Source: an uncultured Porphyromonadaceae bacterium (lineage in GTDB: Bacteria > Bacteroidota > Bacteroidia > Bacteroidales > Muribaculaceae). Taken from it: DNA of 27,174 nt. The notes under the pieces were generated by a model. The model saw only the letters and a list, made by a program, of their open reading frames with translations, did no database searches and had not been told where the DNA came from. The stretch spans positions 1-27,174 of the forward strand of contig CAMWOD010000001.1 in assembly GCA_947175715.1 (NCBI GenBank), in the 5' to 3' direction. The translations under genes and the position numbers were made by a program. Each line of letters opens with the position of its first letter. Positions within the stretch are counted from its first letter, which is position 1. This document shows positions 24,208 through 27,174 of the stretch, piece after piece.

Positions 24208-25254
24208 TTACCTTGTTTTCTTGAGGAAAATCTCGGTGGGGAAGTGGTCGGAGTAACCGTTGAGGAACATTCCGGCCGAGAATGTACGCAGCGGTGAGCC
24301 TAAACGTGTACCGGCCTTGTCCTTAAGGAAGTCCTTGTTGAGCACCTCACATTTCCAGTATTGGAGTGCGCCTTCGGGGGCGTTGGCGAGATTGCCCGAG
24401 ATGATTATCTGGTCGAAGAGGTTCCACGAGCCTTTGTAGGCGAGTGTGCCGATACCCTTGGCGAGCAACTTCCACCAGGGATTGTAAAAGCCATGTTCGC
24501 CAGCGTCTTTAGCCTCCTTGACTGCGCCGAGCGATTTGCAGCATGACTTGTCCCAAGGGTCGTCGTTGAGGTCGCCCATCACGATAACGCCGATATTGGG
24601 GTCGGCCTGCCACAGCGAGTCGGCGATGGCCTTGGAGAGTTCGCCGGCGGCTTCACGCAGGTAGGAGCTGCGCTCCTGGCCACCAAGGCGCGAGGGCCAG
24701 TGGTTAACGATCACGGCGATACGGTCGCCACCGAGTCGACCTACCACACACATCTGATCGCGGGTGCGGAATGATTCGTACCCTTCGATGCGCAGGCGGT
24801 GGTTGGTGACGTTTTCGAGAGTGAAGTAGCGGGGATTGTAGAGCAGGCCCACGTCAACGCCGCGACGGTCGGGCGAGTCGTGATGGCATATCTGCAGGTC
24901 CCATTTTGCTATCTGCGGGTCTTTCACCAGGTCTTCGAGCACCGAGCGGTTTTCAATCTCGCTCACGCCTATGATTGCCGGGCCGTTGGGGGTGGTTGAG
25001 GTGGTCATCGACGCGATGGCGCGTGCCATGTTGTGGATTTTAGACCAGTATTTGCGGCCATCCCACTGGCGGGCACCCTGAGGCGAAAATTCGAGGTCGT
25101 ATTTGCCGTTGTTGTTGATGGTGTCGAATAGGTTTTCGAGGTTGTAAAATGCCACGCCGTAGACTTTGTATTGCTTAGAGTCATTTTTCTGGGCGCTGAC
25201 AGTGATGGCTATGAGGGCTGTCAATAATAGAGGTAGTAAGAATAAACGCTTCAT
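24208..25254 (-). CDS. Secreted endonuclease/exonuclease/phosphatase (EEP) family protein
   Basis: Signal peptide; 'AFYNLENLFDT', 'GVSEIEN', 'RRGVDVGLLY', 'NHWPSR', 'MGDLNDDP', 'FDQIIIS', 'GYSDHFP'. Confidence 0.93.
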   Translation of the reverse strand: MKRLFLLPLLLTALIAITVSAQKNDSKQYKVYGVAFYNLENLFDTINNNGKYDLEFSPQGARQWDGRKYWSKIHNMARAIASMTTSTTPNGPAIIGVSEIENRSVLEDLVKDPQIAKWDLQICHHDSPDRRGVDVGLLYNPRYFTLENVTNHRLRIEGYESFRTRDQMCVVGRLGGDRIAVIVNHWPSRLGGQERSSYLREAAGELSKAIADSLWQADPNIGVIVMGDLNDDPWDKSCCKSLGAVKEAKDAGEHGFYNPWWKLLAKGIGTLAYKGSWNLFDQIIISGNLANAPEGALQYWKCEVLNKDFLKDKAGTRLGSPLRTFSAGMFLNGYSDHFPTEIFLKKTR

Positions 25255-25377
25255 TATGTTGAAGTTATGGAGTGGTATTGACGTTTGAGGTTTTACTGCA
25301 TTTTTGCACGGTAAAGGTAAGGATTTTTAAAACAACATCCCCCTTTTTTAACATATATTTTTGTTTCTACGCCTCAT

Positions 25378-25481
25378 CGACCTCGGAGAGGTCGGAATAG
25401 TTGATAGCCCCTGGTGGAAGCGGCGAAGCCGACGTAACCTGGGGAGGCGGATAACACCATATAATTCAGCCTCGGAGAGGC
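25378..25481 (+). repeat. Structured REP-like unit 1 (X)
   Basis: cgacctc-GGA-gaggtcg hairpin; cccctggt...acctgggg stem enclosing cggc-GAA-gccg; gcctc-GGA-gaggc hairpin. Confidence 0.85.
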
Positions 25482-25546
25482 GGCTTAATTGTGTTGATGA
25501 AGTTTTGGCAGATTGGAGCGATGCGTAGCATCAGCGACAATGCGCG

Positions 25547-25685
25547 GCGTAGCCGCCGGTCTCTGTTACAACCATGACATCGTACCTCCGGCACTCAGCG
25601 GAGCTTACGGGCATGGCCTCCCCGCGTTCGGGCTTACGCCCATCACACGGGGTTCGGTACGATATCGCCGCTCCGCGGCTCAGCT
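25547..25685 (-). repeat. Structured REP-like unit 2 (Y); direct repeat of 27032-27170
   Basis: 139 bp with 8 mismatches to 27032-27170 by hand alignment. On the minus strand: gccgc-GGA-gcggc, a CCCC..GGGG hairpin, gtgcc-GGA-ggtac. Confidence 0.95.
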
Positions 25686-25689
25686 GTCG

Positions 25690-25734
25690 TCAGATTGGTC
25701 TGATAATCCTAATTACTCCGATTACTCCGATTTG
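25690..25734. repeat. Tandem nonamer array, 5 degenerate units
   Basis: tcagattgg tctgataat cctaattac tccgattac tccgatttg. Confidence 0.8.
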
Positions 25735-25863
25735 AGCCGCGGCGCGGCGATATTGTTCTGAACCCCACATGAAGCGAAGCGAGTGTGGGGAATCCAAACC
25801 AAAAAGAATTCTGAGTGCCGGAGGCATGATGTCGTGGTGGCAGGCAAAGACCGGCAGCTACGC
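25732..25863 (+). repeat. Structured REP-like unit 3 (Y'), diverged inverted copy of unit 2
   Basis: tgagccgcggcgcggcgatattg..gaacccc..tgtgggg..ctgagtgccggaggcatgatgtcgtgg..agaccggcagctacgc aligns with the reverse complement of 25547-25685. Confidence 0.9.
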
Positions 25864-25908
25864 AGCGCATATCCTGCGGCATTCATTCTCTCCCCCCTCC
25901 TTCATTCA

Positions 25909-26018
25909 CCATGACATCGCCTCTCCGAGGCTCAATATTATGGTAGGACGTCCTTTCCCCAGGTTTCGGTCTACGACATGCACCTGGGGCTACCTATAAT
26001 TGCGGCCTCACCGAGGCC
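25909..26018 (-). repeat. Structured REP-like unit 4 (X'), diverged inverted copy of unit 1
   Basis: gcctc-tcc-gaggc (25919-25931), perfect ccccaggt/acctgggg stem (25957-25988), ggcctc-acc-gaggcc (26004-26018). Reverse complement shares 'tagcccc.ggtg', 'aacctgggga', 'agcctcggagaggcg' with unit 1. Confidence 0.88.
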
Positions 26019-26037
26019 ACCCTCCACCTCATCACCC

Positions 26038-26072
26038 CAATTGCTCATTACTAATTGCTCATTCCTAATTCC
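26038..26072. repeat. Second heptamer array, 5 units, T[AC]ATT[ACG]C
   Basis: caattgc tcattac taattgc tcattcc taattcc; same unit and strand as 368-416. Confidence 0.9.
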
Positions 26073-26094
26073 CCACCAACCTATGCGTCGTCGG

Positions 26095-26952
26095 TTATTC
26101 TTTATCAGGAGCTTTGGGAGCAGGGTATTGGTGTCGATATACGTAATCTTTGAAAGCTTTATTATTGAAATCCCTTATTTCCTCAAATTGGCGAGCTATA
26201 TCTATAAGTTCGCGTGCCTGCAAGGGTCTGTTCCCCATGGTAAGGGCGAGCTTATAAACGACTAATTTCTGTCTGAGCGCAAGATCGGACTCATTTAGCT
26301 CAGGTGAGATCTGACCCGCATAGCTGTCCAACAACTCGATAATTGCGCTTGTAGAATATCCATGATATATGCAATTGCAAATAACGGTATGTGGGTCGAT
26401 GGGACGTCTGTAGCCTCCTTCATCTTCCGGCTCATATGGCGTTACGGGTGGCGAATAAGGCGCTGGCGAGACATAGCGATTATCAACACGAATTTGTATG
26501 TACCCATTTAATGTAGGTTTTAACGCAGGGTCATTTAACTTGCCATAGCCATTTGTGTCGCTGTATGTGAATGAAAATTTGAGTGGTTCCAATTCGGCAT
26601 AATCCAGTTGTGAGTCTTCCAGTGCGCAGTCTGTTATCCACAAGGGAGACGGCTCACAGTAAATGTTTATGTTCAGCAAGCCGTTTTCAGCGGAAGTTTT
26701 GAATCGTGAGCAGCCAATAGATGTGAAAAGCAGCTGTTCATCACCTTGAGCCGTAACACCCTTAATTGTAATCCCCCCAGGCTCGATTCCTGTCGATCCA
26801 ACCCTGAGTAAGGAATAGTCACGGCTTGCGTTTATACAGTAATGATATGTATCCAAATAAAGCTTAATCTCATAGGCATGCGCAAATGAGCAAGACATGA
26901 GCGCAGAAACGGCCATCACAGCGCTTATTATAACCCGGAGTATTGTTTTCAT
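26095..26952 (-). CDS. Hypothetical exported protein (no family recognised)
   Basis: 285-aa ORF with N-terminal signal (SPI 'AHA|Y' or lipobox-like 'LMSC'), own upstream -7 element, AT-rich (23/60 GC at 26521-26580). Confidence 0.8.
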   Translation of the reverse strand: MKTILRVIISAVMAVSALMSCSFAHAYEIKLYLDTYHYCINASRDYSLLRVGSTGIEPGGITIKGVTAQGDEQLLFTSIGCSRFKTSAENGLLNINIYCEPSPLWITDCALEDSQLDYAELEPLKFSFTYSDTNGYGKLNDPALKPTLNGYIQIRVDNRYVSPAPYSPPVTPYEPEDEGGYRRPIDPHTVICNCIYHGYSTSAIIELLDSYAGQISPELNESDLALRQKLVVYKLALTMGNRPLQARELIDIARQFEEIRDFNNKAFKDYVYRHQYPAPKAPDKE

Positions 26953-26994: not shown

Positions 26995-27031
26995 ACAAAA
27001 TTATTGGAGAATGCTTGATAAAAAGAGGGCT

Positions 27032-27170
27032 GCGTAGCCGCCGGTCTCTGTCGCGACCATGACATCGTACCTCCGGCACTCCGAGGAGCTTACGGGTATG
27101 GCCTCCCCGCGTTCGGGCGTACGCCCATCACACGGGGTTCGGTACGATATCGCCTCTCCGCGGCTCAGCT
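27032..27170 (-). repeat. Structured REP-like unit 5; direct repeat of 25547-25685, reaching the window edge
   Basis: Hand alignment 131/139 identical to unit 2. Confidence 0.95.
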
Positions 27171-27174
27171 TTCG

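Follow-up and report, generated by a model that had tools for sequence, protein, structure and literature searches.

An array of alternating three-hairpin repeats in a Muribaculaceae genome, probably cognate to IS200-like Y1 transposases encoded elsewhere in the genome

Repetitive extragenic palindromic (REP) sequences and REP-associated tyrosine transposases (RAYTs) have been studied almost only in Proteobacteria, where class-2 RAYTs accompany short GTAG-tagged palindromes. The organisation of bacterial interspersed mosaic elements (BIMEs) and of the REPtron in E. coli parallels the two-repeat mosaic described here (PMC6006769). Among TnpA-Y1 proteins, subclass 1.2, with the Y motif Y---Q--HH and the HuH motif DH[IV]H, has been listed without associated REP sequences (Quentin et al. 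2018, PMC6006769). Here we describe an array of structured repeats near the end of a 27,174-nt stretch of DNA (the window; contig CAMWOD010000001.1 of assembly GCA_947175715.1, referred to below as C1) from an uncultured member of the Muribaculaceae, represented by a 1.45-Mb metagenome-assembled genome (MAG) of 269 contigs with an estimated completeness of 68.6%. We consider it likely that this stretch is a BIME-like array of dispersed extragenic structured repeats, cognate to IS200-like Y1 (histidine-hydrophobic-histidine, HUH) transposases encoded elsewhere in the genome, and that together these form a system of the REPtron or REPIN (REP doublet forming hairpins) type.

The array occupies part of an 840-nt intergenic stretch, in which four units of ~105–115 nt at 25375–26022 alternate in orientation (plus, minus, plus, minus). 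A preliminary description of this DNA had proposed four copies of one architecture, and reading of the sequence again gave four (U1 to U4), with all of the stem pairs listed in that description present. The ~640 bp of nested dyad symmetry it reported is borne out by a match of the region to its own reverse complement (66.8% identity over 668 nt, E 2e-27). Each unit contains three hairpins (H1 to H3) and was scored with a covariance model, R1, built on a MAFFT alignment of 25 units. The parts of the array are as follows.

25375–25492, plus strand: unit U1, with H1 at 25379–25393, H2 at 25408–25444 and H3 at 25469–25481 (R1 63.4 bits, E 2e-12; single-stranded DNA (ssDNA) fold)
25520–25561, minus strand: two GTA-loop hairpins, REP type B, located by motif scan
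25520–25532: GATGC-GTA-GCATC hairpin
25544–25561, minus strand: tail motif of U2, the reverse complement of GACCGGCGGCTACGCCGC
25571–25684, minus strand: unit U2, with H3 at 25582–25594, H2 at 25620–25652 and H1 at 25667–25679 (R1 112.3 bits, E 3.5e-24)
25685–25730, no strand assigned: head-to-head linker between U2 and U3, made up of AT-richer short repeats (TAATTAC / GATTACTCC)
25731–25838, plus strand: unit U3, with H1 at 25736–25748, H2 at 25763–25790 and H3 at 25815–25827 (R1 103.6 bits)
25849–25866, plus strand: tail hairpin of U3 with a GTA/TAC loop, REP type B, motif GACCGGCAGCTACGCAGC, forming an inverted repeat with 25540–25565
25908–26022, minus strand: unit U4, with H3 at 25919–25931, H2 at 25957–25989 and H1 at 26004–26018 (R1 91.1 bits)

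All three hairpins were recovered by ssDNA folding in the units that were folded, U2 giving a z value of -3.75, and H2 of this unit encloses an inner GGGC-GTAA-GCCC hairpin. U1 belongs to a GCCTC/GAGGC subfamily. A fourth hairpin with a GTA loop, carried by many units, is present in the tails of U2, U3 and a further unit, U5, at the end of the window, and linkers resembling that between U2 and U3 occur 5' of H1 in other copies.

Read along its GGA-loop strand, a unit is ~105 nt long and consists of H1, a spacer of 14 nt with the pattern GATATNGTACCGAA, H2, ~22 variable nt and H3, and thus differs, as the preliminary description had noted, from the classical REP of 20–40 bp. H1 is composed of GA(G), a 5–6-bp stem enclosing a GGA-type loop and a following GAT; H2 has a 5' arm beginning CCCC and a 3' arm ending GGGG, usually with an inner mini-hairpin; and H3 is composed of GAG, a 5-bp stem with a GGA loop and then GATGTCATGGT. 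H1 and H3 represent one module type in direct orientation (GA, 5–6-bp stem, GGA-type loop, stem, GATRT), and a pattern scan for this module produced 39 matches compared with 1–5 in shuffles. Most loops belong to the C-GNA-G type (GGA, GAA, GTA). Such loops form unusually stable DNA mini-hairpins, and their presence fits a DNA-level role of the units.

Base pairing within the unit was assessed on the 25-unit MAFFT alignment, which was not fitted to structure. Standard pairs were present in 94.3% of 475 cells, compared with 35–50% when the 3' partners were slid by 1–3 columns, and compensatory changes on both sides were observed in 14 of the 19 pairs (71 cells). None of 500 shuffles attained the observed pairing or covariation values. 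This strong covariation indicates, at the level of sequence, that the unit structure is under selection, in agreement with the preliminary description. Non-Watson-Crick cells on the GGA strand were G·T in 35 cases and A·C in 8 (29 and 2, respectively, in H2 and H3 together), so that one particular strand folds, pointing to a single-stranded nucleic acid. The units have a GC content of 58% compared with 51.5% for the genome.

The units are multi-copy, even in this partial genome. Iterated nhmmer searches detected 32 copies on 15 contigs of the MAG, whilst R1 gave 36 matches on 17 contigs (E 1e-24 to 3e-5), many of them close to contig ends, where repeats that break assemblies would be expected. 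Adjacent pairs recognised by R1 were head-to-head in 8 cases and tail-to-tail in 5, and lone units are present on contigs C236, C149 and C162. Many copies are extragenic, and 25 of 35 units did not overlap an open frame of at least 120 aa. The possibility of a decayed coding gene was rejected, the open frames over units being short and limited to repeat clusters, as was that of a known structured RNA family: a scan of Rfam 15 (E <= 1) gave no credible match, and the sole match, of the U2–U3 palindrome to the plant microRNA-precursor model MIR6440 (37 bits compared with a gathering score of 95), was judged spurious. The tail motif with its GTA loop gave 26 matches with up to 3 mismatches on 17 contigs, some attached to units and some free. 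Besides the three-hairpin units, the array thus also contains the GTA-loop repeat type, which refines the preliminary description.

As previously stated, the window contains no transposase gene. Two genes encoding PF01797 (Y1_Tnp) proteins were found in the MAG, each in one copy and both on contig C33: Y1-A (C33:6747–7190, 147 aa, PF01797 86 bits) and Y1-B (C33:536–997, 153 aa, 67 bits). Y1-A is flanked by inverted repeats of ~92 nt, 31 nt of them at 100% identity, which align with the entire three-hairpin unit and score 69–71 bits with R1, giving the order unit (plus), gene, unit (minus); a search for Y1 genes flanked by the units had been suggested in the preliminary description. In these flanks H2 is CCGGG...CCCGG and H3 is found with GATGTTAT. 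The upstream H3 ends 39 nt 5' of the ATG and the downstream copy begins 3 nt past the stop codon, and there is therefore no room for separate insertion sequence (IS) ends (left end, LE, and right end, RE). Just beyond the downstream unit, C33:7291–7417 contains three tandem 50-nt repeats, 92–94% identical, each holding a small palindrome of the GTGGC...GCCAC type. Y1-B lies between inverted copies of the GTA-loop tail motif. Since the tail motif brackets Y1-B and full units bracket Y1-A, the array is a BIME-like mosaic in which two repeat types are combined, a separate Y1 gene belonging to each.

To which branch of the Y1 family these proteins belong was examined with profile, structure-database and motif comparisons. 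Y1-A scored 78 bits with the NCBIfam IS200/IS605 model (cut-off 55) and Y1-B 48.7 bits, whilst the score of Y1-A with the NCBIfam REP_Tyr_transpos model (22 bits) was well under its cut-off of 80, placing it outside the class-2 TnpA-REP/RAYT group. Among PDB sequences the closest to Y1-A was IS608 TnpA (E 1e-7), with the HUH (NHIH) and Y (YIMNQ) motifs aligned, and TnpA-REP was not matched. Both proteins carry the Y motif Y---Q--HH (YIMNQEVHH in Y1-A, YVLNQPQHH in Y1-B), and in both the HuH motif is NHIH, compared with DH[IV]H in subclass 1.2. Judged by sequence, Y1-A and Y1-B are IS200-like and not classical RAYTs, and by Y motif they probably belong to TnpA-Y1 subclass 1.2.

Y1-A orthologue loci (47–64% identity) were taken from 26 Muribaculaceae-type MAGs. 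In ~20 species an R1 unit in plus orientation was present just upstream of the orthologue and one in minus orientation just downstream. The stems of the flanking units vary by species (GTCGC, GTCCC, GTGTC, GCATC, GCCTC and others) and agree within a locus, a species-specific, locus-matched pattern such as would be expected of co-evolution between an enzyme and its substrate. The idea of a REP/REPIN-like family associated with a Y1 gene is supported by the unit-bracketed genes here and in these species, with the refinement that the proteins are IS200-like and not classical RAYTs, and the refuting conditions named in the preliminary description were found not to apply.

Across the family, units were found in 19 of 60 sampled genomes, with 1 to at least 37 copies each (lower bounds, 61 candidates being scored per genome). 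Of the 19 genomes that contained units, 16 had a Y1-A homologue (E <= 1e-10), as did 12 of the 41 that contained none; these counts are descriptive only, as related genomes are not independent. Relative genomes contained 0–7 Y1-A homologues; genome G059 had 7, two of them 500 nt apart, and G008 had two within 3 kb, so the copy number of Y1-A is not always low. In 120 other Bacteroidales families weak unit matches were seen in only 9 genomes. A genome search showed that Y1-B-like genes in other Bacteroidales also lie between inverted, species-specific hairpin repeats. A Y1-A orthologue (54–55% identity) with flanking units was also observed in two MAGs of the same NALB series titled Lachnospiraceae and Pseudoflavonifractor (L026 and L033), one of these loci sitting on a 1.78-Mb scaffold; mislabelled bins seem more likely here than transfer to Firmicutes.

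Two tail-to-tail doublets of the MAG (C110:4741–4971 and C113:4842–5082) contain no gene, and their 17–22-nt centres are mutually reverse complementary. The H3 module found in the Y1-A flanks recurs exactly in one arm of each, and in sequence these doublets, which occur in both orientations, look like the Y1-A locus minus its gene. The dispersed element of genome G055 is a ~480-nt composite palindrome of two units 77 nt apart, the asymmetric 77-nt centre of which was found in both orientations; inverted unit pairs with a short spacer thus occur in many copies and either way round, as is characteristic of REPINs. A comparison of this centre with the gene-proximal flanks of the Y1 locus on contig C42 of G055 revealed no exact relation by gene deletion, only the H2 region being matched (~75%).

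The array in the window is bordered by the following features.

26038–26072, plus strand: heptamer array of five T/C-A-ATT-N-C units, adjoining U4
27056–27169, minus strand: unit U5, with its tail hairpin at 27029–27046; the whole (27029–27174) is 93% identical to 25544–25689
24208–25254, minus strand: flanking gene of the Exo_endo_phos_3 family (Pfam E 2e-110)
26095–26952, minus strand: flanking 285-aa open reading frame (ORF) without a Pfam family, between two direct array copies

With U5 begins another copy of the U2-U3-U4 array, which continues beyond the window end. Another assembly of this species (L065, 99.98% identical) contains, past the window end, a 536-nt stretch (L065:212–746) that directly repeats the block 25544–26079 at 96.8% identity on the far side of the 285-aa ORF. 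The ORF between the direct block copies may reflect recombination or movement of the whole block; its N-terminus resembles a lipoprotein signal peptide. The Exo_endo_phos_3 phosphatase gene is outside the element and served as locus anchor. Its orthologue is present, with no unit upstream, in sister species of the genus and in two other genera, so that the comparison of sister loci advised in the preliminary description revealed a difference in unit presence. Heptamers in tandem (TAATT[ACG]C and variants) form at least 9 arrays in the MAG, several of them directly adjoining repeat clusters or the tail motif that lies upstream of Y1-B, and look like one more module of the mosaic. They were observed in the window at 375–416 as well as 26038–26072, and at C6:606–633, C33:1091–1118, C40:1808–1842, C90:228–255 and C152:1125–1145. 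A conserved ~70-nt module (...GTTAGCCACATGCAAATGCGCCGTTAGGTGCATGC...) recurs beside GTA-loop hairpins, at C33:1–480, C247:715–732 and 25500–25543 of the window.

How the units might spread can be outlined by analogy with the biochemistry of IS608 and TnpA-REP (PMC8266576; background in PMC6006769). While the DNA is in single-stranded form, at the replication fork for instance, the GGA-loop strand would fold, by analogy with IS608 TnpA and E. coli TnpA-REP. The Y1 enzyme would recognise the H1 and H3 hairpins together with the flanks conserved on either side, GA(G) at 5' and GATRT at 3', and would cut and rejoin there, copying or moving units or doublets in trans whilst the Y1 gene itself stayed at low copy number. 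On this analogy the Y1 protein would carry out both the catalysis and the mobilisation, and the mobile segment may be a single unit, a doublet or a larger mosaic.

Several observations weigh against the view that these repeats are cognate to, and spread by, Y1 enzymes. The association of Y1 genes with the hairpins, as read from sequence data, rests on position and phylogeny, and the co-occurrence figures overstate it as kin are not independent. Genome G024 (98% complete) contains at least 25 units and no Y1-A homologue at E <= 1e-10; this may represent an orphan repeat population, or else its Y1 gene may have diverged or be missing from the assembly. The units on either side of one Y1 gene of G055 resemble the dispersed copies at only ~75%, H3 at a second Y1 locus (C24) being nearer to them. 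The latest duplicates are multi-unit, namely 248 nt at 92.7% identity shared with contig C96 and the 536 nt at 96.8% identity beside the 285-aa ORF, and could have arisen by recombination instead of transposition. Polymorphism of the locus counts in favour of the view: contigs from two public gut DNA metagenomes (~93% identical in the phosphatase gene) join 25366 to 26039, leaving ~70 nt compared with 672 nt in the window, and another metagenome contig skips 25931–26053. These joints, however, rest on contigs at 87–93% identity with sides of 36–60 nt and are suggestive, not conclusive, of shorter locus forms in a relative. No pair of empty and filled sites with exact junctions was recovered from which the ends, the target site and the mobile unit could be defined.

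Other explanations were weighed against a Y1-cognate repeat system. If the single unit is what moves, each ~105-nt unit would be a miniature IS200/IS605 element, similar to a palindrome-associated transposable element (PATE), with H1 as left end, H3 as right end and H2 as cargo, excised and inserted in trans as ssDNA. The folding strand carries H1 and H3 as the same module in direct orientation with GA(G)/GATRT flanks kept, an arrangement that mirrors the LE/RE logic of IS608, whose TnpA is the nearest solved structure to Y1-A; in many copies conservation drops a few nt before H1 and ~12 nt after H3, and single units do exist on C236, C149 and C162. However, the copies most alike have blocks in common that exceed a single unit, the alignments contain no constant 4–5-nt target 5' of H1, and empty sites with exact junctions were not encountered, so that we regard this variant as rather unlikely. 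The Y1 gene occupies the exact place of the short centre in the gene-less tail-to-tail doublets, and G024 has many units with no detected Y1-A homologue, both of which would agree with the units being insertion targets, an IS200-like element preferring the centre of a pre-existing palindromic doublet and the repeats having spread otherwise. Some IS are known to target REPs in Pseudomonas and enterobacteria. Against such a role, the 39 nt and 3 nt between the ORF and the H3 hairpins contain no separate LE and RE, the Y1-A gene is single-copy in the MAG, and the layout is kept around orthologues of 47–64% identity in ~20 species with species-specific, locus-matched flanks, a pattern in keeping with vertical co-evolution and not with targeting time after time. 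Insertion-target status is thus quite improbable.

RNA would account equally well for the covariation and for wobble of the G·U type; the array is located between two genes of the same direction, and mRNA stability and termination are influenced by REP arrays in other bacteria. The units might then act mainly as RNA, either as a structured small RNA family or as terminators or mRNA stabilisers, with the link to Y1 incidental. This is very improbable in view of the lack of an Rfam match, the presence of units in both orientations inside one intergenic region and as inverted pairs, the conserved inverted bracketing of a Y1 gene, and the loops, mostly of the C-GNA-G type known from very stable DNA mini-hairpins. 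We attach almost no credence to the elements being miniature inverted-repeat transposable elements (MITEs), trimmed from an IS of the DDE type and moved as double-stranded DNA via terminal inverted repeats. Doublets and larger composites do form long palindromes (~300–480 nt) with inverted ends, but the asymmetry of G·T over A·C favours a single folding strand, the only genes found between units encode Y1 HUH proteins, the alignments revealed no target-site duplications, and a parent IS with these ends was likewise not seen, no systematic search having been made for either.

A Y1-cognate repeat system accordingly remains the explanation we favour. With slightly more doubt than confidence, we further propose that subclass-1.2 Y1 proteins may be the resident enzymes of a REPtron/REPIN-like system in Muribaculaceae, probably also in other Bacteroidales, whose ~105-nt unit would resemble a miniature IS200 element with two end-type hairpins around a cargo hairpin. 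If this is true, the system would stand, as a living intermediate, between IS200/IS605 transposons and RAYT-REP systems that have been domesticated, and the REP lifestyle would have arisen at least twice within the Y1 family. The system is well delimited, belongs to an abundant gut bacterial family and has an enzyme from an IS200-like branch reported without REPs. It offers a test case for hairpin substrate choice by Y1 enzymes and for the turning of transposons into resident repeat-spreading systems, and its interest would be greater were this Y1 branch shown biochemically to have adopted the REP lifestyle independently. Muribaculaceae MAG assemblies are probably broken by these repeats, which lie at many contig ends, and R1 could be used to annotate them. 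Searches of the literature on RAYTs and REPINs in Bacteroidetes or Muribaculaceae found no description of this system, although coverage was incomplete and this is absence of evidence only.

Compared with the REP/BIME-RAYT systems, REPtrons and REPINs of E. coli and Pseudomonas, the repeats described here are likewise extragenic multi-copy hairpins occurring singly, as inverted doublets and in alternating mosaic arrays with linker motifs. As in a REPtron, a low-copy Y1 HUH gene is enclosed by its own repeat type in inverted copies, one genome holds two such pairs of repeat type and Y1 gene, and the distribution is patchy with lineage-specific sequence variants. Unlike a REP, which is a single palindrome of 20–40 nt, the unit here is ~105 nt with three hairpins, and the tetranucleotide GT[AG]G at the 5' hairpin foot is absent from H1 and H3, which are flanked by GA(G) and GATRT; GTAG does occur in the tail hairpin but spans its loop. 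The protein is IS200-like (class 1) and not a class-2 TnpA-REP, and the host belongs to a gut Bacteroidales family.

With TnpA-Y1 subclass 1.2 the enzymes share a length of ~148 aa, the Y---Q--HH motif, an origin in Bacteroidetes, a low copy number and the lack of IS200-type ends. They differ from this subclass as listed in that the genes lie between inverted structured repeats amplified in the genome, and in having NHIH instead of DH[IV]H as HuH motif. The closest protein relatives are those of IS200/IS605 elements (IS608, ISDra2), of which PATEs are miniature derivatives, and with these proteins they share the HUH and catalytic Y motifs; these IS recognise small subterminal hairpins on one strand, and the unit has two similar direct hairpins resembling LE and RE. 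In contrast to IS200/IS605, the gene flanks here are inverted and not direct, and for this reason gene and flanks cannot behave as an IS200-type element. Distinct end hairpins on the same strand and identical element copies were not found, and the single-copy gene is far outnumbered by the repeats. Similarity to subclass 2.6 (RAYT group 5) extends to the presence in Bacteroidetes and to non-canonical 'atypical secondary structures' that flank the gene and have copies elsewhere in the genome, whereas the proteins of that subclass have NH[LIV]H ... YIH[QN]NP and ~179 aa (PMC6006769) compared with YxxNQxxHH and 147–153 aa here. The system is therefore of a known, REP/RAYT-like kind, made distinct by its IS200-like enzyme, probably of subclass 1.2, its three-hairpin unit of ~105 nt without a GTAG foot, its two enzyme-repeat pairs in mixed arrays and its gut Bacteroidales host.

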